A stretch of DNA of 64,000 nucleotides, taken from NCBI GenBank assembly GCA_023898525.1, contig CP060227.1:493634-557633 (forward strand). Reading direction: 5' to 3'. The notes beneath the pieces were generated by a model. The model was not told the origin of the DNA. It made no database searches and worked only from the letters and a program-made list of their open reading frames with translations. Below are positions 6,372 to 60,790 of the stretch, one piece after another. This DNA comes from Candidatus Nomurabacteria bacterium. Its GTDB lineage: Bacteria > Patescibacteriota > Minisyncoccia > Phycocordibacterales > UBA918. The position numbers and the translations under genes are program-made. Positions within the stretch are counted from its first letter, which is position 1, and each line of letters starts with the position of its first letter.

Positions 6372-6425
6372 GATTGTTCGTACCTACGAACAATACACCA
6401 GGTTGCTTTTTTTGGCAAGCTGGGA

Positions 6426-6482
6426 AGTGAATAAAAGTGAAAGCCCGCCGGCTACGCCGGCGGGCTTTCACTTTTATTCACC
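6426..6482. terminator. Bidirectional intrinsic terminator: near-perfect 27-bp-arm palindrome AGTGAATAAAAGTGAAAGCCCGCCGGC-TACG-GCCGGCGGGCTTTCACTTTTATTCAC
   Basis: A GC-rich core is flanked by T-rich arms directly downstream of the hsp20 stop. Confidence 0.65.
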
Positions 6483-6486
6483 TCCC

Positions 6487-11700: not shown

Positions 11701-11780
11701 GCTAGTGCTACTAAGCACTAGCTCTGGACACATAAAAAAAGAAGTATAGAAAAATTCTATACTTCTTTTTTTATGTGTCC
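11701..11780. repeat. Two palindromes 3' of tRNA-Leu: GCTAGTGCT-ACTA-AGCACTAGC (11701-11722) and a 26-bp-arm perfect palindrome GGACACATAAAAAAAGAAGTATAGAA-AAA-TTCTATACTTCTTTTTTTATGTGTCC (11726-11780)
   Basis: The right arm of the long palindrome overlaps the tRNA-Leu 3' acceptor strand. So a downstream inverted copy of the tRNA 3' end encloses an A/T-rich hairpin. Confidence 0.7.
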
Positions 11781-11859
11781 AGGACTGGAGTTGAACCAGC
11801 ACGGGGAAACCCCCACTACCCCCTCAAGGTAGCGCGTCTACCAATTTCGCCACCTGGAC
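11776..11859 (-). tRNA. tRNA-Leu (anticodon GAG), class II with long variable arm
   Basis: Reverse complement: GTCCAGG acceptor, anticodon stem CTACC/GGTAG with loop TTGAGGG, variable arm TGGGGGTTTCCCCGT, T loop TTCAACT, discriminator A. No CCA is encoded. Confidence 0.75.
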
Positions 11860-11910: not shown

Positions 11911-11980
11911 ACAATTGTCTTTATTTAACAAAGCCCCTGCATTATGCCTGAAAAGATAGTTCACTTCAAGCGAAGTGAGA

Positions 11981-12033
11981 CCACAATTACTGAAAAAACC
12001 AGACCGTACGGTCTGGTTTTTTCAGCAATTGTG
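11981..12033. terminator. Bidirectional terminator: near-perfect 26-bp-arm palindrome centred on AACCAGACCGTACGGTCTGGTT, flanked by A6/T6 runs
   Basis: It lies immediately downstream of the rplS stop (12042), with a single mismatch between the arms. Confidence 0.65.
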
Positions 12034-12041
12034 GTTTGAGC

Positions 12042-19326: not shown

Positions 19327-19460
19327 AAAAGCCGCTTTAATTCTCAACCTGAAAAGTCGTCTTATAGACGGCTTTTGCTTTGTTTACACCAAAAATATTT
19401 TTAAATATTTAGTATTCCCTCTTTGGATATTTTCTGCTATCCTGTGAAGCACCATCCATT

Positions 19461-19535
19461 GCCCCCATAGTTCAATGGATAGAACAGGAGACTTCTAAGC
19501 TCTTGATGTGGGTTCGATTCCTGCTGGGGGCACCC
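19461..19535 (+). tRNA. tRNA-Arg (anticodon TCT)
   Basis: GCCCCCA/TGGGGGC acceptor. The anticodon loop CTTCTAA is identical to the bacterial tRNA-Arg(UCU) loop. The T loop is TTCGATT. Confidence 0.7.
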
Positions 19536-19598
19536 AATAGTGAGACCTACTGAGAGGGGTTAATACCCCACTAACCTCAGTAAGTCTAGCGAAACAAT

Positions 19599-29981: not shown

Positions 29982-30319
29982 GCCGTATGGAGTTTGATCA
30001 AGAACAACTAAACGAGTTGGGTCACCAGTGTGAGCGAGTCGAAGTACTCGCTGACGGTCCTCATCATTTTATACTGCTCACCAATTTGGAATTGATTTCC
30101 GATGGGAAGGTAGTGGTGATGGATGCGTTACTGTGCCCATTCGCTCACACTGGTTATGCAACTCGTCTGTTCTTGGCAGAACCTTTGAGTCACAAACAGA
30201 AGAACTGGACAATCCATCAGCTTCTAGGGAGAAATTGGCATACATGGTCATGGAAAGGTGTCGAGGCCAACCAACGTTTGTCACAGATATTAGCGAGCCA
30301 TTTAACCGCTCTCATATGA
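29960..30319 (+). CDS. E2-like (UBC-fold) candidate, 119 aa
   Basis: The candidate catalytic Cys is in MDALLCPFAHTGY, and GPHHF sits in the position of an HPN-like motif. Its stop overlaps the JAB start (ATGA). The assignment is by operon position and size. Confidence 0.35.
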   Translation: MYRNIIVSRMEFDQEQLNELGHQCERVEVLADGPHHFILLTNLELISDGKVVVMDALLCPFAHTGYATRLFLAEPLSHKQKNWTIHQLLGRNWHTWSWKGVEANQRLSQILASHLTALI

Positions 30320-30843
30320 AGGTCGTCTACAAAATAAATGCTGATCTAATAGCAACAATTAAGGAAGACCTATCGCGGTTTCACCCGTATGCGTTTGAGC
30401 GTATAGGGTTCATCTCTAATTCTTGTGCGTACACGAGTGATGACACGCTCACCATTTATGCGCTAGGTTATACGCCGATACCCGATGATTGCTACATCCC
30501 TGACTACACGGTAGGAGTGAGGTTCGGTAAAGATGCAATTCAAAAGGCACTTGAACTCGCCTTCAATGAAGGAGGTCAGAACGTATCAGTCTTTCATGTC
30601 CACGAACACATGGGGTCAAATGTGCCTTGGTTCAGCCAGACTGATCTATTGAGTGCTGACGAATTTGTCCCAGACATATTCAACACCGCACCCGCAATGC
30701 CTCATGGCATTCTGGTACTCAACGAACGACATGCTTCAGGAAAAGTTTGGACTACCAAAGCAGAATCGCAGCCAATAGAAACCGTTATTAGTGTTGGTTC
30801 GCCAACAAAATACTCTAATTACCATGAACGAACGTTATTCTAG
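30316..30843 (+). CDS. JAB/MPN (JAMM) family metallopeptidase, deubiquitinase-like
   Basis: HVHEHMGSNVPWFSQTD approximates the JAMM HxHx7-8SxxD motif. Confidence 0.55.
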   Translation: MKVVYKINADLIATIKEDLSRFHPYAFERIGFISNSCAYTSDDTLTIYALGYTPIPDDCYIPDYTVGVRFGKDAIQKALELAFNEGGQNVSVFHVHEHMGSNVPWFSQTDLLSADEFVPDIFNTAPAMPHGILVLNERHASGKVWTTKAESQPIETVISVGSPTKYSNYHERTLF

Positions 30844-31651
30844 ACAAAGCTTCTTAGGTGAGGACAGCGACTCACTTTTCGCCCGCTTGAACGTCGCTAT
30901 TGTTGGTCTTGGCGGCGGCGGTTCACATGTGGCACAACAACTAGTTCATTTGGGTGTGAAAAATTTCATCCTAGTTGATCACGATTCGATTGAGGAAAGC
31001 AATCTGAATCGGTTAGTTGGCGGTACAGCGGAAGATGTACGAGCAGAGAGAAATAAGGTGGATATTCTTGCTCGAGTGATACGTAGCGTCAATGAAGATG
31101 CCGATGTCTCAGTTCAATCGCAAAAATGGCAAAACGCTGCTAACCTATTGCGCGAGTGTGACTGCATATTCGGTTGCGTTGATTCGCTAGACGAGAGGCG
31201 ACAGCTCGAAAATTTTGCTCGTCGCTTTATGATCCCTTACATTGACATCGGTATTGATGTAAGTAATACAGATGGACGTACTTACATAACTGGTCAGGTT
31301 GCAAAATCGATCCCATCGAAACCTTGTCTTTGGTGCCTCAACATATTGAACGAACAAAATGTAAACAAAGAAGTGCAAGAGTACGGTGCTGCTGGGGGAC
31401 AACCTCAAGTGGTGTGGGCGAACGGTATTGTTGCGTCGGCTGCAGTGGGAATGTTTGTCGAACTGTTTACACCTTGGAACCCTGATCAAAACCAAGTGCT
31501 TTGCCTAGACTACGATGGTAATAAACACACATTGGAAGTGAGTAACCGCATGCTCTTTCCAAGTGTGCAAGAGGGTATTTGCGAGCACTACCCAAAGGAA
31601 TTAGTGGGTGACCCTTTCTTTAAAATTAATAAGATTGTGAACCATGGATGA
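30824..31651 (+). CDS. ThiF/MoeB/HesA-family E1-like activating enzyme
   Basis: RYSRQ motif, Rossmann VAIVGLGGGGSH, catalytic-cysteine region CDCIFGCVD, CxxC zinc site KPCLWC. Confidence 0.8.
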   Translation: MNERYSRQSFLGEDSDSLFARLNVAIVGLGGGGSHVAQQLVHLGVKNFILVDHDSIEESNLNRLVGGTAEDVRAERNKVDILARVIRSVNEDADVSVQSQKWQNAANLLRECDCIFGCVDSLDERRQLENFARRFMIPYIDIGIDVSNTDGRTYITGQVAKSIPSKPCLWCLNILNEQNVNKEVQEYGAAGGQPQVVWANGIVASAAVGMFVELFTPWNPDQNQVLCLDYDGNKHTLEVSNRMLFPSVQEGICEHYPKELVGDPFFKINKIVNHG

Positions 31652-31904
31652 TTTAGCATTTAAGTACCCGAGAAGAATTCTGCAAGCACTACTGGTTGGT
31701 GCGATGGTGATTGCTATTGGCTGGGGTGTTATTACTTGGAACTCGCAAAATGCGATCAATCTCTGGACTAAGGAAGTAACGTTTATTACTCAACCGATCT
31801 TTAACTACTTCACAAACAAGATGGAACGTAGGGTGGAACGAGCTATGGAGCCGGTGACGGAGCAGCTCGAAGCGTCTGGTAACTCCGCTTCGCAAGACCA
31901 GTAA
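31644..31904 (+). CDS. Small two-TM membrane protein (MDDLAFKYP...) ending the Ubl operon; paralog of 48499..48729
   Basis: It overlaps the E1 stop (ATGGATGA). It is ~45% identical over 70 aa to the small ORF at 48499..48729. Confidence 0.5.
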   Translation: MDDLAFKYPRRILQALLVGAMVIAIGWGVITWNSQNAINLWTKEVTFITQPIFNYFTNKMERRVERAMEPVTEQLEASGNSASQDQ

Positions 31905-31924
31905 ACTAAGCTAAAGTGCTGACT

Positions 31925-32140
31925 AATAGCCCTATTTGAGCTATTATGTCCGTTACAACCAAATACGGTAGACCTAACCCATTGGCAACCCCAATGGTAT
32001 GGTCGAAAATCCCAAAGCACATAAAGAACCCGTCATCAGGGCTCGTGCTTTGGGTTATAGGGGGAAACTCCTATAGGAGCTTCGGCTCTCCTGGTGGCGG
32101 GCTTTTTGTACCTCACCAATTTATAAACCCAAAGCACAAT
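31925..32140 (+). ncRNA. Conserved ~200-nt noncoding element, copy A (candidate structured RNA / regulatory leader)
   Basis: It shares TATTTGAGCTATTATGTYCGTTACAA and ACCTAACCC with 60600-60790. It has co-varying stems CCCAAAGCAC/GTGCTTTGGG (copy A) against CCGTCCAAAGT/ACTTTGGACGG (copy B), and ends ...GGGCTTTTTG. Confidence 0.45.
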
Positions 32141-32144
32141 TTAT

Positions 32145-32492
32145 ATGGAATCATTTAAACTATCGTCTTCAGAAAACGAAGACAAGAACGAGGAAGGAAG
32201 TTCATCTGTAGCGAAGGTACTTCTCAGCCTCATTATTATGGGAGCAGGAGGTTGGTTCTTCTTCGGCGGAGGACTCGAACAACAAGCAGCTAATGACCTC
32301 GACAAAATCGAAGACCAGGTCGCTGCTGATTCAGTCCGACAATACAACCTCGCTAAGCAAGGTGGTGACGCAATTGAAATCTGCGTACAAGCAGGAATGG
32401 TCACAGCTGCGTATCTCCAAGCCGAAGACCAACCAAACTACCTAAAGTGGAAAGACATCGAGAAAGCAGACTGTGCTAGAGCAGGGATGTAA
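32145..32492 (+). CDS. Small membrane-anchored protein with acidic N-terminus
   Basis: One TM (VAKVLLSLIIMGAGGWFFFGGG); no motif. Confidence 0.35.
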   Translation: MESFKLSSSENEDKNEEGSSSVAKVLLSLIIMGAGGWFFFGGGLEQQAANDLDKIEDQVAADSVRQYNLAKQGGDAIEICVQAGMVTAAYLQAEDQPNYLKWKDIEKADCARAGM

Positions 32493-32497
32493 AAAAT

Positions 32498-32527
32498 AAA
32501 CCACTGACGGGCAGTGGTTTATTTTTA
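32498..32527. terminator. Bidirectional terminator AAACCACTG-ACGG-GCAGTGGTTT flanked by A6/T5
   Basis: It lies between convergent genes. Confidence 0.65.
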
Positions 32528-32965
32528 TCTTTCCCAATCATCAGGATGACCCCCATTTTCAATGAACTCTCGATATCGTTCAAGACGAGCAATAGTTGGA
32601 ATGGAAGCAATAGTGATTGGTGGTGTCATCTCTTCCAAGCGGTACGGCGAAGTAGTCTTCTTCGGATGATAGTCATCGTGACAGTTACTCAACTGAAACT
32701 TAATCGCTGGAAAGTAGCCTTCACTGATACTACGCATAAGCTGGTTGTGCGCCAAGTCATTTACATAACTCTTGCCGTCACTGATTGCCTTATCCGCCTG
32801 TACCGCAAAATCTTCATCCTCCTTCACCCAGCGATAGTACGTCTCACGGCTCAAGCCAGCCTTCTTGCAAGCAAAGCTCACGTTACCCGATTCACACAGA
32901 GACTGGAGTACTTTCTCTTGCTGTTTCAGAATCCGCTCCTGTATCCGCTTCTCGCGCTTGTCCAT
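32525..32965 (-). CDS. Phage terminase small subunit-like HTH protein (degenerate copy)
   Basis: FACKKAGLSRETYYRWVKEDEDF resembles the TerS HTH, and the gene at 62675..63070 is homologous in layout. Confidence 0.45.
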   Translation of the reverse strand: MDKREKRIQERILKQQEKVLQSLCESGNVSFACKKAGLSRETYYRWVKEDEDFAVQADKAISDGKSYVNDLAHNQLMRSISEGYFPAIKFQLSNCHDDYHPKKTTSPYRLEEMTPPITIASIPTIARLERYREFIENGGHPDDWER

Positions 32966-33707
32966 TACCAGTAAGTTTTAGCCAGCGAACAACGATAGTC
33001 TCGCAGTATTCTGGGTCCATCTCGACCGTAATACACTTACGCTTCGTATGCTCGCAGGCAATCAAGGTTGAGCCACTGCCACCAAACGGGTCATAGACGG
33101 TGTCACCAACCTTCGTGCTGTTAAGAATCAGTCTGCGGAGTAATCCGACTGGTTTCATCGTCGGGTGGAGCTTGCTTTGCGACGGTTTCGGGTAGAACGC
33201 AACTGACTTGTCTTTGCCACGCTTGAAGTCGTGCGTACCTTTCCAACCGTAGAGAATGAGTTCGTGTTGCGGTAGGTAGTCGAGTCGTCCCACGATTGCT
33301 CGATCCTTCACCCAGACGATAAGTTGGGCAATTTTCATGCCTGCCTCAAGACAGGCCTGACGGAGAGCGAAGATCATCTTGTCGGAGTTGAAGATGTAGA
33401 TGCTGTTTTTCTTGGACAGCTTTGAGAGTGCTGGAGAAAGCCAGCTCTTAGTGAATTCAACGTACTGTTGGTCGGACATAAATCCGTCATTGGAGATGTC
33501 TTTATCCTTGGCAATCTTGCCAATGCCACGCTTGCTTTCAGCGTAATCGACACCGTACGGCGGGTCAGTTAGAAGGAGGTCGATGTTCCCGTAGACAGAG
33601 AGGTCTACCTTGGAGGAATCACCGCAGATGAGAACGTGCTCACCAAGACAGATGATGTCCCCTGTCTTAATTGATCTTGGTAGCTTTGGTACCGGTGAAT
33701 TTTTCAT
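32892..33707 (-). CDS. DNA methyltransferase (N6-adenine/N4-cytosine, DPPY family)
   Basis: DIICLGEHVLICGDS and LLLTDPPYGVDYA. Confidence 0.8.
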   Translation of the reverse strand: MKNSPVPKLPRSIKTGDIICLGEHVLICGDSSKVDLSVYGNIDLLLTDPPYGVDYAESKRGIGKIAKDKDISNDGFMSDQQYVEFTKSWLSPALSKLSKKNSIYIFNSDKMIFALRQACLEAGMKIAQLIVWVKDRAIVGRLDYLPQHELILYGWKGTHDFKRGKDKSVAFYPKPSQSKLHPTMKPVGLLRRLILNSTKVGDTVYDPFGGSGSTLIACEHTKRKCITVEMDPEYCETIVVRWLKLTGNGQAREADTGADSETARESTPVSV

Positions 33708-34941
33708 AGCGGTTGATGATTACCTGAACAAAGACGGGGTTGAGCTCGACCAGAAACGCATTGCGCTTCATTTGCTCACACGCAAGGAGGGTTGAACCTG
33801 AGCCACCACAGAGATCGAGCACGTTATCGCCGATCTTGGTGCAACGGTTGAGTGGTCGCTCATGCAAAGACAGAGGTTTCTGCGTTGGGTGATCGTAGGA
33901 TTGTCCTGCGTCACGCTTAGCGAGCCAGATATCAATCATGTCAGTGACATCATCGATGGTAGCGTTACCGATGCCGATATCTTTATTCAGAATCTCGGCG
34001 AGTTTGGTGTGCTTTTTAGAGAGGTATGGCTTACCAACCGTGCCGTAAAGGGCTGGTTCGTAGATTTTCGAGAACGCTACTTGTGGCGTTGGGTTGATAC
34101 CGTTCTTGATCCAGAGGGCGGTGCGTTTGTATGCGATACCTACCTCAACGAAGAGGTTTTGAAGCATGCCGACATACGCTGAATCGCAGTACCAGATGTG
34201 GTGCGAGTCCTTAGCTGAAACGTCCACCGCATTTTGCATCAGTGTGCGTACGAAGGTGCGGTACTCAGCGTCTGTCTTCTTATCATCAACGACACCACCG
34301 TAGCTTTTCTTGCCCCCGATGCCTTTGTCGTACGAGAGTCCGATGTTGTATGGAATATCTACATACGACATGTCGATTGTGGTCTCACCAACAAGCTTCT
34401 TCACTGTCTCGGGGTTCGTGCTGTCACCACAGATAAGATAGTGGGTACCGAGCTTGAAGAAGTCACCAGACTTAATGTCAGTCGTCTCGGCTTTCTTGAG
34501 CTCTTTCTCAGGATTAAACTCATCGTCATCAATCTCCAGCACATCGTCCCAGATGTCAGAGAGGTCTCCGTCATCGAAGCCGATGTCCAAGAGGAACTCA
34601 GTGTCAAAATCCTTCAACAGTTCGTAGTCCCACGAGCCTGTGTTCTTATTGGAGCGTAGGAGATACTCTTCAAATTCCTTCTTGGTAAGGGTGCGGTTTG
34701 GTACTCGCACGTCAATTTCTTCTTGCCCGCGACCGAGTAGTTGCATCACCTTCAATCTGGCGTGTCCTGCCACGATAGTGTTATCAGTGTTGATCGCAGG
34801 AATCTCCGCTAGAGAGAACTTGGTAATGCTCGCTTCAAGGTCTTTACGCTGTTTGTCCGACAAGGTGCGAGGGTTCTTGTCGTACGGCACGAGATCATCG
34901 ACTTTGCGTGTCTCTGTGTGCCAAGTAATTTTATTACTCAT
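33667..34941 (-). CDS. ParB-like nuclease domain fused to a DNA methyltransferase
   Basis: N-terminal ParB/Srx fold (DLVPYDKNPRTLSD), then HYLICGDS and DIPYNIG methyltransferase motifs. Confidence 0.8.
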   Translation of the reverse strand: MSNKITWHTETRKVDDLVPYDKNPRTLSDKQRKDLEASITKFSLAEIPAINTDNTIVAGHARLKVMQLLGRGQEEIDVRVPNRTLTKKEFEEYLLRSNKNTGSWDYELLKDFDTEFLLDIGFDDGDLSDIWDDVLEIDDDEFNPEKELKKAETTDIKSGDFFKLGTHYLICGDSTNPETVKKLVGETTIDMSYVDIPYNIGLSYDKGIGGKKSYGGVVDDKKTDAEYRTFVRTLMQNAVDVSAKDSHHIWYCDSAYVGMLQNLFVEVGIAYKRTALWIKNGINPTPQVAFSKIYEPALYGTVGKPYLSKKHTKLAEILNKDIGIGNATIDDVTDMIDIWLAKRDAGQSYDHPTQKPLSLHERPLNRCTKIGDNVLDLCGGSGSTLLACEQMKRNAFLVELNPVFVQVIINRYEKFTGTKATKIN

Positions 34942-35726: not shown

Positions 35727-35883
35727 ATACTCTAATTATACAACCGACTTTTACAGCGATAATATCCTTGTTTTAAGCCATATCCGTATTTTCAAACCGT
35801 TCTGAAAATGCTCTTAAAATAGCTGTTTGGGTGTCAGATTTGTAACATGTGGCTTTACTGAGCCATCGGCATATAATCACTTT

Positions 35884-37233
35884 ATGAATTATCAAATCGC
35901 CGCTCCGTCTGAGAAGCCCATCGTGCTCAAATACTGTATCTACGCTCGCAAATCCATGGAGCAAGAGGAACGCCAAGCGTTGTCTATCGACTCTCAGCTC
36001 AAGGAGATGAAGGAAATCGTTGACCGAGAGAAGCTCGATGTCGTAGCAATAAAAACCGAGTCGCACTCAGCCAAGCACTCAGGACAACGTGAGGTCTTCA
36101 TGGAAATGGTCACAGAACTCAAAGCTGGCAAGTACAACGCCATCCTTACCTGGAACCCAGACCGCCTCAGTCGTAATGCTGGTGACCTCGGCTTGCTGGT
36201 AGACATGATGGACAATGGCAAGTTGTTGGAGATTCGTACCTTCAATCAAGTCTTCTCCAACTCACCAAACGAAAAGTTCCTCCTCATGATTCTCTGCTCA
36301 CAAGCCAAGCTGGAGAACGATCAGAAAGGTATCAACGTGAAGAGGGGTCTGCGAGCTGCAGCTGCTAAAGGTCTCTGGCCCTGTGCCTATCCGCCACTCG
36401 GATACAGCAAGTCACGCATGAAGGGTGAAGAAGGAGTTGTGCATTTAAATAAGAAAGACGCTCCATTCATCAAGGAAGCGTTTCGGAAAGTAGCGTACGA
36501 GGGCTATTCAACCTACGCCATTGAACGCTGGCTCAAGGAAACTGGCATGACCACTTCCTCTGGCAAACCCCTGAATTACAGCCTCGTTCAAGCCATGCTC
36601 CACAACTCTTTCTACTACGGCTATTTTGAATTTCCGAAGAAGAGTGGACAGATATACAAAGGTGCACATAAGCCCGCCATTACCAAGAAGCTTTTCAATG
36701 ATGCACAGGAAGCAATTGCTCAGAAGGAGCGGAAGAAACGCTACCGTAAATCTAAGACTGCGCCGTTTGGTTTTCTTCACTTGATACGCTGTGGTACTTG
36801 TAGCTCGGGTATCACTGCCGAAGAGAAGTACAAAACTCTTAAAAGCACTGGTGAAGAAGCTGTCTACCGTTACTACGTCTGTTGCCGAAATCGTAACCGT
36901 GACTGTCGTGAGAAATATATTAGCGAGACTCAATTACTGGAAGAACTGTATAAAATTCTTGATGTCGTCGAGCTTGATGAAATTGGTATGCGAGAAATGC
37001 TCGAGTCTGAGATTGAGAAGTGGTACAAGGTGCGGGCATTTGTTCAAGGCAAACCCGTTGAAGAACGCACTGATGAGCAGAAGGAATACGACCTCCGTAA
37101 ATACGCCAAGATTATCTTTGAAGAGGGTCGTAACGATGAACAGCGTGAGATCTTGAAGTATGTAAAAGGCAGGCTGATTTTGAGGAACAAGCGAATATAT
37201 CTCGATACCGTTCCAGAAGAGGCAAAATCCTAA
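35884..37233 (+). CDS. Large serine recombinase, paralog 2
   Basis: YARKSMEQEE, LSIDSQ, ILTWNPDRLSRNAGDLG; ~60-70% identical to the other three copies. Confidence 0.85.
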   Translation: MNYQIAAPSEKPIVLKYCIYARKSMEQEERQALSIDSQLKEMKEIVDREKLDVVAIKTESHSAKHSGQREVFMEMVTELKAGKYNAILTWNPDRLSRNAGDLGLLVDMMDNGKLLEIRTFNQVFSNSPNEKFLLMILCSQAKLENDQKGINVKRGLRAAAAKGLWPCAYPPLGYSKSRMKGEEGVVHLNKKDAPFIKEAFRKVAYEGYSTYAIERWLKETGMTTSSGKPLNYSLVQAMLHNSFYYGYFEFPKKSGQIYKGAHKPAITKKLFNDAQEAIAQKERKKRYRKSKTAPFGFLHLIRCGTCSSGITAEEKYKTLKSTGEEAVYRYYVCCRNRNRDCREKYISETQLLEELYKILDVVELDEIGMREMLESEIEKWYKVRAFVQGKPVEERTDEQKEYDLRKYAKIIFEEGRNDEQREILKYVKGRLILRNKRIYLDTVPEEAKS

Positions 37234-37341: not shown

Positions 37342-37384
37342 AAAACAAACAAACGACTCTTTTAAAAGAGTCGTTTGTTTGTTT
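37342..37384. terminator. Perfect palindromic terminator AAACAAACAAACGACTCTTTT-AA-AAGAGTCGTTTGTTTGTTT
   Basis: It lies 110 nt after the recombinase stop. Confidence 0.6.
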
Positions 37385-37477
37385 TAGAAACTGAACTGCT
37401 TCAGTTTCGTGCCTGTGTGCCGGGCGGAGACATGTTTTCTTCTCCTTCCCAGAGAAGAAAACAGTCGAGCCGGGGTC

Positions 37478-37660: not shown

Positions 37661-37770
37661 CGTCATGAATCGAAGGGATATTGGATGTGTGACAACACGA
37701 CAATATCCCAGGCTCGAAGAGGATTCCTGCTGGGGACACCGAAAGAATCAGGAATCCCATTCACCCCCAA

Positions 37771-44764: not shown

Positions 44765-44807
44765 GAAAATAGAAATGCCCTTGTGGTGCTCCCGCCAGGA
44801 ATCGAAC
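44765..44807 (-). repeat. tRNA-associated motif copy 2 (minus sense CCACAAGGGCATTTCTATTTTC) fused to a 22-nt exact copy of the tRNA-Arg 3' end ending ...GGGAGCACCA
   Basis: 44786-44807 equals 44974-44995. Confidence 0.65.
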
Positions 44808-44925: not shown

Positions 44926-44987
44926 CCTGGCGGGAGCACAAGAAAAACCGGCTAAACGCCGGCCTTTCTTACTGTGCTCCCGCCAGG
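44926..44987 (-). terminator. Extended hairpin CCTGGCGGGAGCAC...GTGCTCCCGCCAGG enclosing intrinsic terminator GGCCGGCGTTTAGCCGG+TTTTTTCTT, 3' of tRNA-Arg
   Basis: The right arm of the hairpin is the tRNA acceptor/T-stem 3' strand itself. Confidence 0.6.
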
Positions 44988-45046
44988 AATCGAACCTGGA
45001 GCACTGGTACCGCAAACCAATATTTTATCCATTAAACTACGGGAGC
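44975..45046 (-). tRNA. tRNA-Arg, anticodon read as GCG by manual folding
   Basis: Reverse complement: GCTCCCG acceptor, D arm GTTT-AATGGATA-AAAT, anticodon stem TTGGT/ACCAG with loop TTGCGGT, T arm CCAGG-TTCGATT-CCTGG, discriminator A; 72 nt. Confidence 0.6.
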
Positions 45047-48766: not shown

Positions 48767-49510
48767 TTAGAGAATATGCACTCCGAAAGCTTCGAGTTTA
48801 TCTTTCTTTTTCTCCCACTTGGGATATTTCTCGTCTAAAAATGCGAAGAACTTCTTATCGTGATTTTTGTATCGCATATGACAAAGTTCATGAACAATAA
48901 CGTAGTCAATACAGTCTTTTGATACGTGTATTAGTTTGGGATTAAGAATGATTTTGTCTTTGTTCACAAAACTACCCCAACGACGCTTCATGTCCCGAGT
49001 AGTCAAGGCTGGAGTATGTTTGTAATCAAAACGCTCAAGCATCTCGTTAAATCTTTCTTCGAAAACACTTTGTCGTTTTTGATCAAACCAAAGCTTAACA
49101 AGTTTTTGAGTATGGACACCGTCACTTAATGCCTTAGTGGTGGAAACCATTAGTACTCCTCGCAGAAGAGAAACAGAATCTATCTCTCCCTTTCGAACAA
49201 TTAACTTATGCTGTCTGCCAAGGTAGTGGAAACTTTCGCCAGAAACATACTCTTTGGTATACGTTTTACGTTGGTACTTACCAAAGAAGTTCAGTTGTTT
49301 CTGTAGCCAAAACCATTTCTTTTTCAAGAATTGCTCAATTCTTTCATCATCAGCTTCATGTGGACACTTAACACAAATCCGCATATCCGGAGTAACGGTT
49401 AGGCTGAGGGTTTTTCTATCTTGTTTAATGAGGTCGTAGCAGTAGACGAATGAGCCAAAAATAAATTCTTTTTGCTGTTTAGGAGAAGATTTCATGGTTA
49501 TTCTCAGCAA
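48767..49510 (-). CDS. YgjP/DUF45 (M48-like, HExxH) metal-dependent hydrolase commonly linked to type I R-M operons
   Basis: VHELCHM motif. It overlaps the hsdR stop by 32 nt. Confidence 0.65.
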   Translation of the reverse strand: MLRITMKSSPKQQKEFIFGSFVYCYDLIKQDRKTLSLTVTPDMRICVKCPHEADDERIEQFLKKKWFWLQKQLNFFGKYQRKTYTKEYVSGESFHYLGRQHKLIVRKGEIDSVSLLRGVLMVSTTKALSDGVHTQKLVKLWFDQKRQSVFEERFNEMLERFDYKHTPALTTRDMKRRWGSFVNKDKIILNPKLIHVSKDCIDYVIVHELCHMRYKNHDKKFFAFLDEKYPKWEKKKDKLEAFGVHIL

Positions 49511-52500
49511 GCATAAGTGTATTGTTTATGATGGTTCGAATATCATCATTGGTAAGATCAATCTGCTTTTCAGTCTTTACTGTGTCGTAGAGGTAATCAT
49601 CAACCTTATTCATGATTTTTCTTTTCACATCTAAGTTTTTGTACCAATCAACAATAGCTTCTGCTTTAACGATATTGAAAATATCGAGGACTATTGTAAC
49701 GAATTCTTCTTCTGAAAGTTTAAAGTTGCCAAATGATTCTCTTAAGTTTCGATAAAACACATCTGAACCACTAACAGACTCAATCGCGGTTGGTAGACTG
49801 TCATCCTTTTTATTAACAACATCATCGCTAATTAGCTTCAATTGCTTAAGAGCAGCGATGTCAGCCATTTTGCCCTCATGCATTTTCTTTAAGATGTCTG
49901 ATATTTTCTTTGAGAATCGCTCGTAGAATTCAGGATCAGAATCCATCTTTTCAGTAATGTTCTTTTGAGTCTGTGCCGCAATCGCTTCTGCCTTAGATTT
50001 ATCTGATCCTAGTGTTTCGATTGCTTCCTCAAACTTTTCGCGATCAGTAATATTGATTTGTTTAGTTAAAAGCTCGACACTTTGGGCATCTACGTACTTA
50101 TCAAGAATCCCAACCAGTGATTGTTTGTATTCCGCCAAATCAACTCGGTCTGCATACTTCAAACTAGCAGTCTTTCGAAGCTCCATAAACTTCTTAAGTT
50201 CACGAGTGTACATATCGAGATTATCAAACTCATGAACAAAGTCTTGAAGCACAAAACACTCATTTAGATTTTTGATGAAAGCATTGAGAGTTTTGTAGAA
50301 AGTCTCTCGGGTCGGGGCATCATCCAGTAACTGTAAAAACTCTTCATCGTCAGATGAGCCTTTAATAGTTTTAAAGATGTCTTGAAGAAGACTGTAACTT
50401 TCTTCCAACTCCTCAACCTTCTTACTCACATCAACCATGGTGCCTTTCACGTCTTCTTCATCGTAGTTACCAAACAGCTTCATCGCTGTATCAATGTTCT
50501 TGGCATTTTCAGAGTAGTCGATGATATACCCTGCTGTCTTAGGCAACTTCTTATTTTCATGCAATCGGTTTACACGAGCAATTGCTTGTAAAAGGTTATG
50601 GTCACGCAAGTCTTTTGCTAAGTAGAGCACTGTATTTCGAGGGGCATCAAAGCCGGTCAAAAGCTTATCTACAACGATGATGATTTCGATTCCATCATCA
50701 TTGTATTTAAAGCTATCAATCACATCTTTTTCATACTTCGCTACACTACTGTGATTCTTTCGTACACTATCAAGGTACTTTACCACCTCAGCCTTATGGG
50801 TGTTTGCTTCGTCACCATCATCATGCTCGTCTGAAATAACTACTGCAGTACGAATTTTCGCCCTGTCTTGGAAGAACTTCTGAAACAAAACAGCCGAATA
50901 CTTTGAAGGAGCAACCAACTGTGCTTTAAGACCAGTATCTTGGAAATGTTCCGTGAAGTGCTTTTCAATGTCATACCCAATTTCAACAATACGCTGAGGA
51001 TTGTCTTTAATAACTTTAGTACTTATGTATTTCTGAATCTCTCTTTTTTGCTTTTCGTTTAAGTCTTCAGTAATTCGATCTACCTGTCTATCAATTTGCT
51101 CAGCATTCTGTTCCATTGGCACATAACGCCCCTCATAGATAAGCGGAAGAATGATGTTATCAGCCAGAGCATCATCAATCGTGTATTTGTCGATATATCC
51201 ACCAAACTTTTTCCAACTAGCCTTCTCTGACTTCATGAGTGGGGTACCAGTAAAGCCGATGTAACACGCATTTGGAATAATGCGATTCATCTCAAGATTG
51301 GCGATACCGCTTTGACTACGGTGTGCTTCGTCAATCAAGACGAAAATATTTTGATCGTCATCAATAAAGCCAGCCTTTTTCTTAGCTGCTGAATCAAACT
51401 TATCGATCACCGTTGTAATTACACCGAGGTTTTTATCCTTGATGAGATCAAGCAGGTTTTGTCCGCTGGTAGCCTGAATAACCTCTTTCTTGAGATTACA
51501 GTTTTTAAAGGTATCTCGAATTTGTTTATCCAAGTCTTTTCGGTCAGTCACAATTAGAACCCGAGGGTTGCTAATCTCAGGATTTTCAATCAGCGCCTTC
51601 ACGAACATGACCATTGTCAGTGACTTTCCTGACCCTTGTGTATGCCACACCAAACCACCTTTTCGACGAGTAATACCTGTATCAGTAGTCTCAGTTTCTT
51701 TAATGTGGTTCAACATTTTGCTGATAGCAAAATACTGCTGGTAGCGAGAAAGTTTTTTAACACCTGCATCAAAAAGAATGTAGTTCTTTGTGAGATCAAG
51801 TAAACGCGCAGGTTCAAAAAGCGACAAAATACCTCGATCTTGCTCAGTCGGTAACCGATTCAGTTTTTGCTTATGGCCAGTAGTGTATCCATTCAAATCA
51901 GTCAGTACTTGTTTGTATATTTCTGCATCTACTGGTGTTGCAATCAGCTTTTTAATCTTTGCGTCTAGTTCTTTTGGTGTTGTACCTTTTTCTTTCCAGA
52001 CAGCATAAAACTTATTTGGTGTACCAGTCGTACCGTATTGCAATTCTTTGCCATTTGTCCCTACAAGCAACTGGGTAAAGGTATACAGTTTTGGGCAAAA
52101 CTCAGGTCCCTGATTACGATTCATCTGATTAATCGCTTCAACTACGGGAACACTAGACTTTTTATTCTCAATAACTGCAAATGGGATACCATTTACGAAA
52201 CAAACGATATCAGGGCGAATGTTTTGCTTACCACTGGCCACATATTCAGCTGTGATATGGAAGGAGTTGTTTTCAGGATGTTCAAAATCAATAAAACGAA
52301 AGTTCTTTGAGACCGTCTTACCACCCGCACTCACCTTAATAGTCTTACCGCCCGAAGTTGGCATGATGATGTTGTAGATTTTTTGTGAAGTATCAATCAG
52401 GCCCTCGTACTGGATATGTTCAAGCTCTTCAATCGTGTCTCGAACGTCTTTCTCACTAAACTTGTATGATTTACCATCAACCTCATATCCGTTGATATCC

Positions 52501-52667
52501 ATCAATTTACGTTCAGCAATATCTGCCAGTATGAAATTGCTGGTGTCGCCACCACGTTCCTTGAGCACATCCTCAGCAGAAATGTATTGGTAGCCCATAG
52601 CAATCAGTAACTCAAGGGTGGTGAGTTGAGACTGTCGGGCTTCGTCAAAGTGTACTTTTTCTAACAT
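49479..52667 (-). CDS. hsdR: Type I restriction enzyme R subunit (second system)
   Basis: WHTQGSGKSLT, VLIDEAHRSQ; 1062 aa. Confidence 0.9.
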   Translation of the reverse strand: MLEKVHFDEARQSQLTTLELLIAMGYQYISAEDVLKERGGDTSNFILADIAERKLMDINGYEVDGKSYKFSEKDVRDTIEELEHIQYEGLIDTSQKIYNIIMPTSGGKTIKVSAGGKTVSKNFRFIDFEHPENNSFHITAEYVASGKQNIRPDIVCFVNGIPFAVIENKKSSVPVVEAINQMNRNQGPEFCPKLYTFTQLLVGTNGKELQYGTTGTPNKFYAVWKEKGTTPKELDAKIKKLIATPVDAEIYKQVLTDLNGYTTGHKQKLNRLPTEQDRGILSLFEPARLLDLTKNYILFDAGVKKLSRYQQYFAISKMLNHIKETETTDTGITRRKGGLVWHTQGSGKSLTMVMFVKALIENPEISNPRVLIVTDRKDLDKQIRDTFKNCNLKKEVIQATSGQNLLDLIKDKNLGVITTVIDKFDSAAKKKAGFIDDDQNIFVLIDEAHRSQSGIANLEMNRIIPNACYIGFTGTPLMKSEKASWKKFGGYIDKYTIDDALADNIILPLIYEGRYVPMEQNAEQIDRQVDRITEDLNEKQKREIQKYISTKVIKDNPQRIVEIGYDIEKHFTEHFQDTGLKAQLVAPSKYSAVLFQKFFQDRAKIRTAVVISDEHDDGDEANTHKAEVVKYLDSVRKNHSSVAKYEKDVIDSFKYNDDGIEIIIVVDKLLTGFDAPRNTVLYLAKDLRDHNLLQAIARVNRLHENKKLPKTAGYIIDYSENAKNIDTAMKLFGNYDEEDVKGTMVDVSKKVEELEESYSLLQDIFKTIKGSSDDEEFLQLLDDAPTRETFYKTLNAFIKNLNECFVLQDFVHEFDNLDMYTRELKKFMELRKTASLKYADRVDLAEYKQSLVGILDKYVDAQSVELLTKQINITDREKFEEAIETLGSDKSKAEAIAAQTQKNITEKMDSDPEFYERFSKKISDILKKMHEGKMADIAALKQLKLISDDVVNKKDDSLPTAIESVSGSDVFYRNLRESFGNFKLSEEEFVTIVLDIFNIVKAEAIVDWYKNLDVKRKIMNKVDDYLYDTVKTEKQIDLTNDDIRTIINNTLMLAENNHEIFS

Positions 52668-52673
52668 AGTAAT

Positions 52674-53843
52674 TTATTTAGTGGCTGATAATGATTTAAC
52701 TGTTCTAATATTCCCGTGAACCAGGTTTTCTAGTAAGTATTTTCTCTGTTCTCTTACAAGTTTTAATTTGTCTTTTAAGTTCTCTAGTTCAAGTTCGCAA
52801 GTTTCAAATATCTCAGCAATTTTGATTTGATCGTCAGTATTCTCTGGAAGACTTACCTTTGTCTGCAAGAATTGGTTTTTTGACAAATTATATCTACTGA
52901 CTCCCTGAGCTATTCTAAACATATGTTTCCTAAATGACTTACCCCTAAACAAAAAACGAGCAAAACGTGGCTCTAAAATATTTTGTTTTGGTCTAAACCC
53001 AAAACAAAAGCTGTTTAGCAAGACTTTATTTTTACTTTCATCTAAGAAAACTGAGGACATACCTACATCCTGTGGTGTTTCTGATGATGTGGTGAATATC
53101 AAATCACCATACTCTAAGTAATTCTGCTTCTCTCCTTTTTGGATAGAAACTAAACCATATTGATCAGGATGAATCTTTGAGTTTGAAAAAACATTCATGT
53201 ATGTGACATATGGTGTGCCAAAACCGAAGTCGTCTTTTGATTTTCCTGTAAGTCCAGTAAAGGTTACTCCTAATTGGGAGATGGTATAAGTTTTCCATTC
53301 GCTTTTTGAACCTGGTACTTTAATTCGTTCATTCAATACTTCTTCTAGTAGACCTTTCTTTGTTTGTTCCTTTTTACGAATAGTTCTTTGTAGTTCATTA
53401 ATATAGCAATCCCATGTAGTAAGGATTGAAACAATTTTCTCTTGTTCTGCAGTTGGAGGGAAATCAAAAGGTATTTTTTCAATAGTCGTTTTAGATAAAC
53501 TTGGTACGCCAGAAGCTTCGTTGTATTTAAGCCAATTAATTTTCTGAAAAACGTAGTTGATGTATTTAGCAGTAGTGTCCTTGAAGTTGTAGGTATAGAA
53601 AAGCGTATCTACTGTCCAAAATTTTCCATTGTAGTAAAACGGTTTGTTAATAGTTCCTTTTCTGCCAATAAAAACTGTCTCGCCTTCGTGCAACGGGGTA
53701 TCTACGTGACGCATTAAACCACCTGTTCCAAACACTGGAATATCTCCGTCTTTGAGATGCTTATGGTCTTTGCCACTTCCTATTTTCAGCACGTCGCCAA
53801 GCTTTTTTCGAGACCATCCTTTAACTAAAGTTTCTTTTTTCAT
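52674..53843 (-). CDS. hsdS: Type I R-M specificity subunit, full length (second system)
   Basis: Two TRDs. Its N-terminus is homologous to the hsdS at 24248..25390. Confidence 0.8.
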   Translation of the reverse strand: MKKETLVKGWSRKKLGDVLKIGSGKDHKHLKDGDIPVFGTGGLMRHVDTPLHEGETVFIGRKGTINKPFYYNGKFWTVDTLFYTYNFKDTTAKYINYVFQKINWLKYNEASGVPSLSKTTIEKIPFDFPPTAEQEKIVSILTTWDCYINELQRTIRKKEQTKKGLLEEVLNERIKVPGSKSEWKTYTISQLGVTFTGLTGKSKDDFGFGTPYVTYMNVFSNSKIHPDQYGLVSIQKGEKQNYLEYGDLIFTTSSETPQDVGMSSVFLDESKNKVLLNSFCFGFRPKQNILEPRFARFLFRGKSFRKHMFRIAQGVSRYNLSKNQFLQTKVSLPENTDDQIKIAEIFETCELELENLKDKLKLVREQRKYLLENLVHGNIRTVKSLSATK

Positions 53844-53844
53844 A

Positions 53845-54282
53845 TTACTTTTGAATTTTCTCTAAGTCAGCTGGCATATACCGCACCACGTTACCTTGCT
53901 TATCGACTGAAAAGACATGAAGCAAGAGCTTCTTGGCAATTTGATATGGAATACGTTTGATAGCCTTGTCGGCTGATTTTTTAGGCAGAGCAATACCGTA
54001 GTAGTAGCGTGTAGAACCAGAAGTGTTCATGCGAGTAATGATCTGGCCAAGTGAGTAAATAAAAGCCACCTCTTCACTTGAAGAATTATTTGAACCCTTA
54101 CACTCAATAAGGTAATAGCGTGAGTATCGTGTGTGGACCGCTTTAATATCGACTCCTTTCTCTCGTAGGGTAGCCACCTTAACTAACCGCCAATGATGTT
54201 TCGACAGCCATTCAATCACTCTTGTTTGCACAAAGTCTTCGGTGATGTCTCGTGAGGTATCTTTTTTCTTAGCATTACTCAT
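53845..54282 (-). CDS. Small PD-(D/E)xK nuclease-fold protein (Mrr/NERD-like)
   Basis: GVDIKAV...YYLIECKG fits D...ExK. Confidence 0.45.
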   Translation of the reverse strand: MSNAKKKDTSRDITEDFVQTRVIEWLSKHHWRLVKVATLREKGVDIKAVHTRYSRYYLIECKGSNNSSSEEVAFIYSLGQIITRMNTSGSTRYYYGIALPKKSADKAIKRIPYQIAKKLLLHVFSVDKQGNVVRYMPADLEKIQK

Positions 54283-54284
54283 AT

Positions 54285-55178
54285 TTAATTGTCGATAGCT
54301 ATTACTTGGGAAGGCACATTGTCACCGTTTTCCTTAGGTGCCATGATGACCTGCTTGTAGTGATTGCAGGCAGCGTTCAAATATTCCTGTAACTCGTCTA
54401 GATTAACAAGTCCGTTTTTTATATCGTCTGGATGTATGGCTATGATGAGTCTTTCACAAACATTAATTTGCTTATTAGCTTCAATGTAACTATCAATAAT
54501 CTCCTTGGCTGTCGTCATCTTAGTCAGCGACGCATTACGCCCATGGCCAGAATTTACTAGAGGAATTGTCACATATTTATTTCTACCCGATTCATTGCCA
54601 ATAAAATCCCAAACTGAAGCAAGCGAAGTAATCAGGTCATCAATACTTGCCTTAACACGATTGTTTTCTAGTTTGTGTGAGTTTGCTAGTAAATAAAATC
54701 TCTTATTGTTATTTTCCACCTCAACTGTCGTACCAATTGGATTTTCAGTATTTTGAGAAACTTTATCTTTTATATCAGCCTCTAAATGCTCGTGCCTCCC
54801 ACCGTAGTAGTCACAAATTAACTTGTTTTGTAGACTATTTGCCTTTGCAACGTTCCCGCCTAAAGTCAGGTCAAAGTGATCATTTATTGGTACTATCAAA
54901 GCACCTTTATTTTTAAATGCGTCTCCAACTTTAACTTCAATAAAATTATCTTTTTTGCGAATCCTGCTTGAAAAAGAAGTTTTCGGTTTATTCTTTAAAA
55001 TTGCAATAATAAAAATTAGCACCATTATTGGTAATGCAAACCACGGTTCTTTGAAAAGATGATCAACAACCCCGCTGGTCATGTAGCTACTCATCTCAAC
55101 GGCCAACCAAAATAAACCTAAGCCAGTTACTGTGTCAGCTACAATCAGTTTCCATTTTTTGATCCAGCGTAAAATCAT
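54285..55178 (-). CDS. thsA: Thoeris type II ThsA-like effector: N-terminal TM helices + C-terminal Macro domain
   Basis: ALIVPINDHFDLTLGGNVAKA aligns with the macro motif AIVNAAN-x6-GGGV, and SGHGRNAS with the second macro glycine-rich loop. Two N-terminal TM helices. Confidence 0.55.
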   Translation of the reverse strand: MILRWIKKWKLIVADTVTGLGLFWLAVEMSSYMTSGVVDHLFKEPWFALPIMVLIFIIAILKNKPKTSFSSRIRKKDNFIEVKVGDAFKNKGALIVPINDHFDLTLGGNVAKANSLQNKLICDYYGGRHEHLEADIKDKVSQNTENPIGTTVEVENNNKRFYLLANSHKLENNRVKASIDDLITSLASVWDFIGNESGRNKYVTIPLVNSGHGRNASLTKMTTAKEIIDSYIEANKQINVCERLIIAIHPDDIKNGLVNLDELQEYLNAACNHYKQVIMAPKENGDNVPSQVIAIDN

Positions 55179-55678
55179 AGTCCCAGATTTGTATATATCG
55201 AATTACCGTAATGGTATGCACCTGTCTTACCTTGTGCTCGATATGACTTGTGATCTTCTGGCCATTCGCGAATGGCTTTTGCCACAATTGATTTATTGAA
55301 ACTTACGTGCACCGCAAGTTCCCCAGTCAAAATGGCAGGACACAAATCATCCTTATCTCTTTTACCGTTTAGATTGACAACTACTATAGGAATGTCTTTT
55401 TTGATTGCTTGTTCGATTTCCCAGCGAACAAATTTGTATAGATATTTTGTGTTGTTACCCACCAAAAGTAGAAAGACACGGGTATTGGAAAGACGTTCCC
55501 GCAACTTTGCCTTAATTGTCTCCTCAGAAGAATAGGGCATTAGGTTGTTTAGATCATGTGCGTCATAAAAACCAAATGCACTGCCGTCTGTCTTTCGCCA
55601 AGCCTGCATTAGTCGGTAGTAACGAATATCGTTATCAGCATCAAACGCAACGTATGCTTTGTTAGTATAGGTGCTCAT
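55175..55678 (-). CDS. thsB: Thoeris ThsB-like TIR-like domain protein (DUF1863 type)
   Basis: KAYVAFDADND...RVFLLLVGNNTKYLYKFVRWEIEQAIKKDIPIVVVNLNG matches the MTH538 TIR-like pattern. It overlaps thsA by 4 nt. Confidence 0.6.
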   Translation of the reverse strand: MSTYTNKAYVAFDADNDIRYYRLMQAWRKTDGSAFGFYDAHDLNNLMPYSSEETIKAKLRERLSNTRVFLLLVGNNTKYLYKFVRWEIEQAIKKDIPIVVVNLNGKRDKDDLCPAILTGELAVHVSFNKSIVAKAIREWPEDHKSYRAQGKTGAYHYGNSIYTNLGL

Positions 55679-55679
55679 A

Positions 55680-57017: not shown

Positions 57018-57020
57018 AAA

Positions 57021-58529: not shown

Positions 58530-59106
58530 GTTGTTTTGTAAGGTTAGTAAATGTTGCTTCGACGATTTGTTGTTTTAAATACTGGCGACGATCGACAATT
58601 GATTGTTGGGCTTGAATGTTTTCATGCAGTGCTACGATTGCTTTTTGCTTCTCTAGCTCTGGCACTGGAATTTTTATGTGTATGAGTTCCCGCCGGGGTA
58701 AGGCCCCAATGTATGAACCAGTGACGATATTAGCCAGTGAGTCTTGTCCCTCTTTTGAATTGAGGTAGTGAGATAGAAACTCTGGAAGCACCTTGCTCGT
58801 ACTTATTCGAATAATGTGTACAGATGCCGATGCAATAACATTCTGAGCATCAGACATGAAGACAGCTGCACGAAAGGCACCAGCCTTCATACCTCGTGCC
58901 ACAATTAGAACATCATTTTTTTGGAGGTACCTGTCGTCAGGAGGGAGGTCAAGCGATATCTTGGTCAATGAACTCACATCCGAGACTGGGACACCTTGTA
59001 CCAAGTCACGAGCCTGAAATACCAGTGTATTGCCGTTGCGCGTTTCTTCAATAGCTCCGCGAAAAGCGTAGCCTGGAGTTACTTGGGCAATATCTGACAA
59101 TTTCAT
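58522..59106 (-). CDS. hsdS: Half-size type I R-M specificity subunit (single TRD)
   Basis: 194 aa. Its C-terminal conserved helix (ELEKQKAIV) is typical of HsdS. Confidence 0.65.
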   Translation of the reverse strand: MKLSDIAQVTPGYAFRGAIEETRNGNTLVFQARDLVQGVPVSDVSSLTKISLDLPPDDRYLQKNDVLIVARGMKAGAFRAAVFMSDAQNVIASASVHIIRISTSKVLPEFLSHYLNSKEGQDSLANIVTGSYIGALPRRELIHIKIPVPELEKQKAIVALHENIQAQQSIVDRRQYLKQQIVEATFTNLTKQHD

Positions 59107-60599: not shown

Positions 60600-60790
60600 C
60601 GTAGTAGCTATATTTGAGCTATTATGTTCGTTACAAACCCGACCTAACCCGCAGGCATTCGCAGGCGGTATGGTCATCAAATACCGTCCAAAGTAAAAAA
60701 CTCCTAATCAGAGCTACTTTGGACGGTCATATCGGGAAACTGGTATGGGCATTGCCTTACGGGGCGTGTCGGCCTGGTTAGGAGCTTTTT
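60600..60790 (+). ncRNA. Conserved ~200-nt noncoding element, copy B
   Basis: See copy A at 31925-32140. Confidence 0.45.

Follow-up and report, generated by a model that had tools for sequence, protein, structure and literature searches.

The LOOT RNA, one of the motif set of Weinberg et al. 2017, is listed in Rfam (RF03000) as a metagenome-based family of the type "Gene; sRNA", with CCUAA(A/C), (C/U)AUGG and GAAA as the most conserved nucleotides of its consensus. For this family ~43 bp, six helices and 28 cross-covariations are given by Rivas 2020, and the main text of Weinberg et al. 2017 makes no mention of it. No functional study of LOOT was found in the searchable literature, outside which the 2017 supplement falls. 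Two copies of this RNA, A (~31924-32108) and B (~60602-60791), are present on the plus strand of a stretch of 64,000 nucleotides from a Candidatus Nomurabacteria bacterium (assembly GCA_023898525.1, contig CP060227.1, positions 493,634 to 557,633). This whole stretch is referred to here as the window, and positions are counted from its first letter. Both copies are newly recognised members of a known orphan family. The family is described as occurring in several copies per genome, a description that the two copies in the window fit.

The two copies closely resemble the Rfam entry, aligning to all 121 of its positions with six helices and the CCUAA, YAUGG and GAAA motifs. They differ from it in that the RNA extends further, into a covarying helix of 11-13 bp that is formed with the P2b region and followed by a U tract. 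A promoter, hosts in the Candidate Phyla Radiation (CPR)/Patescibacteria, a prophage context and a relation to the downstream gene (a leader position and a repeat at the start region) can now also be assigned. These features and the 3' helix appear to go beyond the Rfam entry and the literature consulted; priority is uncertain, and the 2017 authors may have noted part of them.

LOOT is similar to attenuators and riboswitch platforms in having two mutually exclusive pairs of helices immediately ahead of a U tract and a start codon. In contrast to these, its putative terminator stem is long-range, crosses P2a and encloses two hairpins, and it has no known ligand pocket or effector. It differs from anti-Shine-Dalgarno (anti-SD) platforms in that the sequence that would be occluded is a locus-specific segment and not an SD, in a genome that is SD-poor. 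On balance, we consider it probable that LOOT is a cis-acting attenuator combined with a translational lock for a prophage cargo gene.

Family membership and fold

The first-pass annotation of the window had described a conserved noncoding element present twice, with compensatory stem changes, and had taken it for a structured RNA or a protein-binding DNA site. A comparison with Rfam, which it had proposed as a check, gives clear matches to LOOT of 80.2 bits (E 1.7e-13) for copy A and 71.2 bits (E 2.2e-11) for copy B (Rfam 15; gathering score 46.4 bits), both spanning model positions 1-121 without truncation in cmscan. The remaining Rfam matches in the window are six tRNAs only, and a permissive Rfam scan (E up to 0.5) found no third LOOT copy in it, for example beside the other two recombinases. 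The two copies have a mean column identity of 76% (MAFFT pairwise alignment). For a 26-nt block, TATTTGAGCTATTATGTYCGTTACAA, a search that tolerates up to 3 mismatches finds just two occurrences in the window, with 0 expected from 100 shuffles.

Relatives were collected with sequence patterns. A degenerate LOOT pattern gave 26 matches on IMG/VR viral contigs, 12 of which are convincing copies, and a tighter one, in which CCTAAMCC, GGYATGG and GGAAAC were required, gave at least 120 loci in species-representative genomes, of which the 120 listed are all LOOT-like. The counts reported here for relatives cover 134 collected loci (126 sequences in the alignment), which are a pattern-selected subclass and not a full survey. 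All 18 relatives that were sampled exceed the Rfam threshold, with scores of 51.9-94.9 bits. Among the 120 matches listed, 100 carry CPR/Patescibacteria names, 12 are unclassified and 8 are assigned to other taxa (Bathyarchaeota, Pacearchaeota, Pseudomonadales, Lutibacter and others). These 8 are mostly on short contigs, suggesting mis-binning. Two LOOT copies on separate contigs were observed in four other genomes (loci L053/L073, L094/L146, L128/L135 and L127/L131).

RNAfold of positions 31960-32088 gives the Rfam LOOT fold for copy A (-50.8 kcal/mol, z -4.8), and the helices covary in the relatives, in agreement with the structured RNA that had been suspected. P1 is formed by the blocks GACCUAACCC...GGUAUGGUC in copy A and by the same blocks in copy B. 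It contains the conserved CCUAA/YAUGG internal loop and a variable distal hairpin, the stem of which covaries in the alignment. A GAAA-capped hairpin, P3, followed by P4, is present in both copies, and P3 is 99.3% paired in the relatives' alignment. The shared blocks ACCTAACCC, GGTATGGTC and GGGAAACT singled out by the first-pass annotation are the conserved internal loop and the GAAA loop of LOOT.

The P2a stem varies in sequence and keeps its pairing: it is perfect within each copy, over 10 bp in A and 13 bp in B, with different sequences, and the compensatory changes noted earlier are exact. In the alignment of 126 sequences, double-sided changes are found at 9 of 10 P2a pairs. In each copy P2a encloses P2b, or the 5' strand of the long-range helix described below.

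The 11-nt receptor of the GAAA tetraloop, in which CCUAAG...UAUGG is combined with a GAAA tetraloop, is found in group I introns and RNase P. The opposite strands CCUAAM and YAUGG of P1, together with the GAAA of P3, resemble this receptor and its tetraloop, which is a lead and not a test. In contrast to the classical receptor, the closing G.U is replaced in LOOT by A/C opposite C/U, and docking is hypothetical.

From promoter to start codon

The conserved 5' block of the element is a predicted promoter (TTGnGn-TATTAT) with its start site, because the block shared by the two copies, TTGAGC-TATTAT-GTYCGTT-ACAA, fits the logo of the relatives; the RNA is predicted to begin near 31955 in copy A and near 60633 in copy B. 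With the upstream sequences aligned at their best -10 hexamer, a match of at least 5/6 to TATAAT was found in 113 of the 134 loci. The logo of 73 anchored relatives shows T-T-G-A at -35 spacing and ttg.G.TATaAT, with ttACAA 6-9 nt further downstream. A consensus promoter scan made no call for copy B, which is without a good -35. The start-site region of this copy, TGTTCGTTACAAAC (60625-60638), recurs with 86% identity at 60797-60810, between the U tract, which ends just before it, and the start-region repeat, and has no -10 box preceding it there.

The Rfam model stops at P4, and the conserved 3' end of the RNA lies outside it. In every one of the 134 loci the tail that links P4 to the U tract can pair with the P2b hairpin region, typically over 11-13 bp, and the helix is formed by 108 distinct complementary sequence pairs. 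Its duplex energy averages -19.0 kcal/mol with the tail's own partner as compared with -8.4 kcal/mol with swapped partners (p = 7e-65). In a MAFFT alignment based on sequence alone, pairing at the seven core positions reaches 98-100%, with exchanges among GC, AU and CG (at one position GC 46, AU 45 and CG 26), and sliding the partner by one column lowers overall pairing from 88% to ~41-44%. Conservation of at least 90% in the 126 sequences is seen for three consecutive U, a fourth U and the G that comes next, at positions that the search pattern did not require. The tail of copy B forms an inverted repeat with 22-nt arms that are 86% complementary, counting pairing between the A tract and the U tract.

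At one position of the tail helix a U.G pair is conserved in 93 of the 126 sequences. A conserved G.U would be an A-C mismatch on the other strand, so that the constraint acts on the plus-strand transcript, and the protein-binding DNA site offered by the first-pass annotation finds no support here.

Support for P2b is lower (88.5% paired), and it competes with the tail helix because both use the same CCC strand. RNAfold of 31960-32108 picks the tail helix (-59.2 kcal/mol); when the tail is removed, the Rfam fold is returned. Since the tail helix crosses P2a, the two together would form a pseudoknot. The tail can also pair with the sequence just after the U tract at -14 kcal/mol in 23% of loci, compared with 7.6% of controls. 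A closing helix between the 5' leader and the region after the U tract was considered and dropped, own and swapped energies being alike (p = 0.28). In six loci (L013, L046, L123, L128, L125 and L140) a conserved 9-14-bp hairpin lies between the tail and the ATG, with the U tract as its 5' strand (CUUUUUGCGUCUUAU ... AUAAGACGCAAAAG). As it is built on the U tract, read-through RNA in this subfamily appears to be structured and under selection.

The first downstream open reading frame (ORF) of at least 70 aa is co-directional with LOOT in 99 of 124 loci, and its ATG follows the helix at a median distance of 44 nt, a gap in which a separate promoter would hardly fit. In 20 loci no ATG-initiated ORF of 50 aa or more is found within 150 nt, and most of these loci are truncated or carry shorter hydrophobic ORFs. 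LOOT is consistently located between a promoter and a co-directional gene in the relatives, which is the position of a leader. The genes themselves are hypervariable, 114 ORFs (median length 162 aa) falling into 81 sequence clusters, and a hydrophobic 19-mer occurs within the first 90 residues in 88 of the 114 (77%), as compared with 28% of control ORFs. Domains found among them include SNase, a tRNA_anti-like OB fold and DUF4352. They match the variable cargo ("moron") locus pattern of temperate phages. In the window, both copies had been placed on the plus strand upstream of genes for small membrane-anchored proteins. The position and the hydrophobic N-termini stand, and the start of the second gene has to be moved: it is likely to be the ATG at 60828 and not the TTG at 60789, which falls inside the U tract. 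Neither protein has a Pfam or PHROG match.

Before each of the two start codons lies a third copy of a P2a stem arm, which, like the long-range 3' helix and the fact that the family is already catalogued, was not part of the first-pass annotation. The start-region repeats of copies A and B are unlike each other, and each matches its own LOOT. Exact arm repeats of at least 10 nt are found in 19 of the 134 loci, compared with 9 of 670 swapped controls. The repeated arm is always the 5' arm; it is located 19-40 nt downstream of the helix, with 3-11 nt between its end and the ATG, and is locus-specific in sequence. If G.U pairs are allowed, a duplex of the 3' arm with the downstream region at or below -14 kcal/mol is present in 14% of loci and 1.5% of controls. 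Elsewhere in the 8-kb loci, on either strand, no matches to the variable arm exceed the swapped controls, leaving the site at +19 to +40 nt as the only one.

Because the 5' arm is repeated before the ATG, the 3' arm of P2a could occlude the start region. The duplex of 3' arm and start region is near-isoenergetic with P2a (-16.7 and -19.1 kcal/mol, respectively). The minimum free energy (MFE) structure of the copy A read-through RNA (32000-32149) pairs the 3' arm with the start region, and that of copy B retains P2a. Two mutually exclusive pairs result, P2b versus the tail helix and P2a versus the duplex of 3' arm and start region, the latter in both window copies and in ~20-40 relatives. An SD-like motif precedes only 4 of the 37 long ORFs (at least 200 aa) of the window; given this scarcity, accessibility of the start region probably decides initiation. 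Several long ORFs of the window have TATAAT ~10 nt before the ATG, suggesting leaderless or very short-leader mRNAs.

In the mechanism that we propose, transcription would start from the TTGnGn-TATTAT promoter ~15 nt before P1, and the RNA would fold into P1, P2a/P2b, P3 and P4. The 3' tail would pair with the whole P2b hairpin region over 11-13 bp, displacing the short P2b stem, and the resulting helix with C+U5 might work as an intrinsic terminator, from which a LOOT RNA of ~155 nt would be set free. Read-through transcripts would run ~35-45 nt on into the co-directional cargo ORF, which usually codes for a membrane-anchored or secreted protein. In these transcripts the 3' arm of P2a might either keep its partner in LOOT, so that the start stays accessible, or pair with the start region and prevent initiation. 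Such a choice would matter in a genome that scarcely uses SD sequences.

Several points weigh against this mechanism. The search pattern demands the conserved blocks, so that the sample is biased to one subclass and the invariance of those blocks is uninformative. As a terminator the element would be atypical: an 11-13-bp stem and C+U5 are conserved, but the stem encloses ~55-60 nt, and a consensus terminator scan (loop 3-8 nt) makes no call at either copy, which it misses because the stem is long-range. The 13-bp and 10-12-bp helices of one pseudoknot may be alternatives rather than coexisting. In copy B the pairing within LOOT (13 bp) is stronger than that with the start region (10 bp). The match between arm and start region occurs in only ~15-25% of loci, so that a lock on the start region cannot be a universal function of LOOT. 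Termination, read-through and the translational effect are inferred rather than shown on transcripts, and no candidate for a switching trigger was identified. It is more likely that the family-wide function is an attenuator or leader role, to which the translational lock is an addition.

More tentatively, and with rather less confidence than in the mechanism itself, LOOT might be regarded as a new class of phage riboregulator specific to CPR/Patescibacteria (pro)phages, in which a pseudoknot braced by a tetraloop receptor serves as terminator and the hypervariable P2a is "programmed" to the start region of the following cargo gene. If this were true, a single scaffold would gate both transcription and SD-independent translation of genes for lysogenic conversion or superinfection exclusion. 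CPR bacteria have not been cultured or are difficult to grow, and knowledge of their gene regulation and their phages is scant. An orphan RNA can here be assigned to a host clade (CPR, in this case Candidatus Nomurabacteria) and to mobile elements, namely temperate phages that carry serine integrases. Its known structure grows by one helix that is well supported, and a concrete, testable mechanism is offered that ties it to the gene behind it. It could serve as a tractable in vitro model for termination and for SD-independent translational control.

Alternative explanations

LOOT might instead be a stand-alone small RNA (sRNA) that acts in trans and is terminated efficiently at the U tract, its place before a cargo gene being merely a matter of prophage organisation. 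We regard this as possible, although rather unlikely. The classification in Rfam as "Gene; sRNA" fits a trans-acting RNA and is a further point against a leader, and the same can be said of the strong predicted promoter of its own, the terminator-like end, the several copies per genome (in the window and in the four other genomes) and the absence of a match between arm and start region from most loci. However, a co-directional ORF is found ~44 nt downstream in ~80-95% of loci, and both structure and conservation are seen in the stretch from the U tract to the ATG. Matches to the variable arms exceed controls only at +19 to +40 nt in the 8-kb loci, and the arms, buried in a 10-12-bp stem, would be poor seeds for pairing in trans.

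The cis-acting attenuator and lock that we favour shares with type I toxin-antitoxin systems such as IstR-1/tisB an RNA segment that is complementary to the translation start of an adjacent membrane-protein gene. In LOOT, by contrast, transcript and strand are the same for both partners, the complementary segment is tied up in a stem, and the linked proteins have 100-300 aa with extracytoplasmic domains and are not short toxic peptides. A type I toxin-antitoxin assignment was rejected: the downstream ORFs, with the median length and the 81 unrelated clusters given above and several extracytoplasmic domains, are not conserved hydrophobic toxins of <60 aa.

That P2b and the long-range helix are mutually exclusive, in a promoter-proximal position ahead of a gene, would also suit a riboswitch-like sensor, in which a metabolite, an ion or a phage or host protein sets termination by stabilising P2b as antiterminator or the fold braced by the tetraloop receptor. 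The compact architecture, with a receptor-like motif and a GAAA loop, is in keeping with such a sensor. The 28 cross-covariations of Rivas 2020 fit competing pairings. We nevertheless consider a sensor improbable: tertiary-contact modules and the U tract explain the strongly conserved nucleotides, an unpaired pocket that is conserved does not stand out, and the downstream genes, in their 81 clusters, have no common metabolic theme.

The prophage-associated RNAs GOLLD and ROOL and the phage nut/put RNAs are like LOOT in being carried by phages or prophages, in their extensive structure and in lying close to a promoter. LOOT as a 5' element that protects the transcript or modifies the polymerase, with a nuclease-resistant fold stabilising the cargo mRNA or a put/nut-like RNA altering termination by RNA polymerase, would fit these features, including the pseudoknot, and a conservation that lies mainly in shape and less in sequence. 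This seems very unlikely, as it leaves the U tract after the helix and the identity of arm and start region unexplained. LOOT is much smaller than GOLLD and ROOL, and the Rfam scans of the window found no similarity to GOLLD, ROOL or nut/put RNAs.

An attP-like or other recombinase- or repressor-binding DNA site, as the first-pass annotation had thought plausible, would suit the inverted repeats and the adjoining serine recombinase gene of copy B and 40 of the 134 loci, but is extremely improbable in view of the frequent conserved G.U pairs, with their strand-specific constraint, the promoter and U tract of fixed orientation, the distance of 3.7 kb between copy A and the nearest serine recombinase, the tRNA-Arg 3' repeat that marks island ends at which the element is not located, and the adjacency of integrase and LOOT in the integrated state, which implies that the crossover site is not between them.

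Gene neighbourhood and other features of the window

Clustering of the ORFs within 3.5 kb of LOOT in the relatives reveals a large serine recombinase, upstream and divergent, in 40 of 134 loci. Downstream, on the opposite strand, are a terminase-small-like helix-turn-helix protein (33 instances), a DNA methyltransferase (30 instances) and the terminase large subunit (19 instances). The recurrent order is serine integrase, LOOT, co-directional ORF, and convergent terminase and methylase genes. As a widespread and easily recognised element, LOOT marks a cargo locus of CPR prophages and is useful for annotation.

The window agrees with this picture. Both copies had been assigned to recombinase-bearing mobile regions, and the context is indeed prophage-like, with serine recombinases and terminase genes (Table 1). 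In total the window contains four large serine recombinases, two type I restriction systems and phage genes. Copy A is preceded by a plus-strand operon that includes a ThiF/E1-like gene. The window terminase is <27% identical to that of any deposited phage, and blastn against deposited phage genomes gave nothing for positions 30000-34000 or for the LOOT RNA itself.

Table 1. Positions of LOOT elements and neighbouring genes in the window
Feature	Position	Strand	Basis
Copy A predicted promoter: -35-like CTGACT (31919-24), 17-nt spacer ending TTGAGC, -10 TATTAT (31942-47); predicted start ACAA (31955-58)	31919-31947	+	consensus scan
Copy A LOOT core (model 1-121): P1 with CCUAAC/UAUGG, P2a/P2b, P3 with GAAA loop, P4 with UUCG loop	31971-32089	+	cmscan, RNAfold
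Copy A P2a stem: 5' arm CCCAAAGCAC (32011-32020), 3' arm GTGCTTTGGG (32045-32054; = GUGCUUUGGG)	32011-32054	+	complementarity; cmscan
Copy A 3' tail UCCUGGUGGCGGG (32089-32101), pairing with CCCGUCAUCAGGG (32029-32041), then C, U5 (32103-32107), G	32089-32108	+	complementarity, covariation
Copy A repeat of P2a 5' arm AACCCAAAGCAC, 7 nt before ATG 32145, 12/12 complementary to 32045-32056	32126-32137	+	repeat search
Copy A downstream ORF of 115 aa with hydrophobic segment at the N-terminus; LOOT is followed by homologues in L047 and L011	32145-32492	+	ORF call
Terminase-small-like protein near copy A, convergent	32525-32965	-	domain/profile search
Two DNA methyltransferases near copy A	32892-34941	-	domain/profile search
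Serine recombinase near copy A	35827-37233	+	domain/profile search
Large serine recombinase, divergent from copy B	59154-60488	-	Pfam Resolvase + Recombinase + Zn_ribbon_recom
Copy B predicted promoter: TTGAGC-TATTAT, -10 at 60620-60625; predicted start ACAA (60633-36)	60614-60636	+	family logo
Copy B LOOT core (model 1-121)	60641-60756	+	cmscan
Copy B P2a stem: 5' arm ACCGTCCAAAGTA (60683-60695), 3' arm TACTTTGGACGGT (60715-60727)	60683-60727	+	complementarity
Copy B 3' tail CUGGUUAGGAG (60774-60784), pairing with CUCCUAAUCAG (60701-60711), then C, U5 (60786-60790), G	60774-60791	+	complementarity
Copy B repeat of P2a 5' arm ACCGUCCAAA, 4 nt before ATG 60828, 10/10 complementary to 60718-60727	60814-60823	+	repeat search
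Copy B downstream ORF, 141 aa from ATG, N-terminal hydrophobic segment	60828-61253	+	ORF call
Terminase large subunit, convergent on copy B module	61255-62694	-	domain/profile search
Terminase-small-like protein, convergent on copy B module	62675-63070	-	domain/profile search
DNA methyltransferase, convergent on copy B module	63067-63765	-	domain/profile search

The last 22 nt of a tRNA-Arg(TCT) gene (19460-19537) recur with 91% identity at 37722-37743, 18.2 kb downstream. The 18-kb island bracketed in this way contains a type I restriction system, two serine recombinases, an ImmA/HTH pair, the ThiF/E1-like gene and LOOT copy A, and the repeats are probable att sites of one integrated element or of two in tandem. 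The 3' end of tRNA-Arg(GCG) also has an exact 22-nt copy, 188 nt from the gene (44786-44807 and 44974-44995), which is likely to be a scar of integration or excision.

The ThiF-family protein of the copy A element (30791-31651) is matched by the PADLOC "E1-E2" models in its adenylation domain only (E 8e-15), and the small ORFs flanking its gene gave no matches. The gene could be a phage-borne ubiquitin-like conjugation or counter-defence gene. A defence island at 49479-59106 encodes HsdR, a full HsdS (52674-53843), a ThsA/Macro-like protein (54285-55178), HsdM and a half-length HsdS (58522-59106). The shorter HsdS gene adjoins the integrase of the copy B prophage, which may have inserted into or beside a specificity gene.

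Among the relatives, a reverse transcriptase gene (Pfam RVT_1, E 1e-24) lies on the minus strand of locus L112, at 2454-3510 relative to LOOT, and recurs in six loci; the same prophages may thus carry a retron, a diversity-generating element or a group II intron. Between genes of the window there are long palindromes, perfect or nearly so, with arms of 22-31 nt and loops of 0-3 nt, at 6422-6486, 11724-11782, 11980-12035 and 37342-37385. One of them abuts tRNA-Leu, and they are probably bidirectional terminators.

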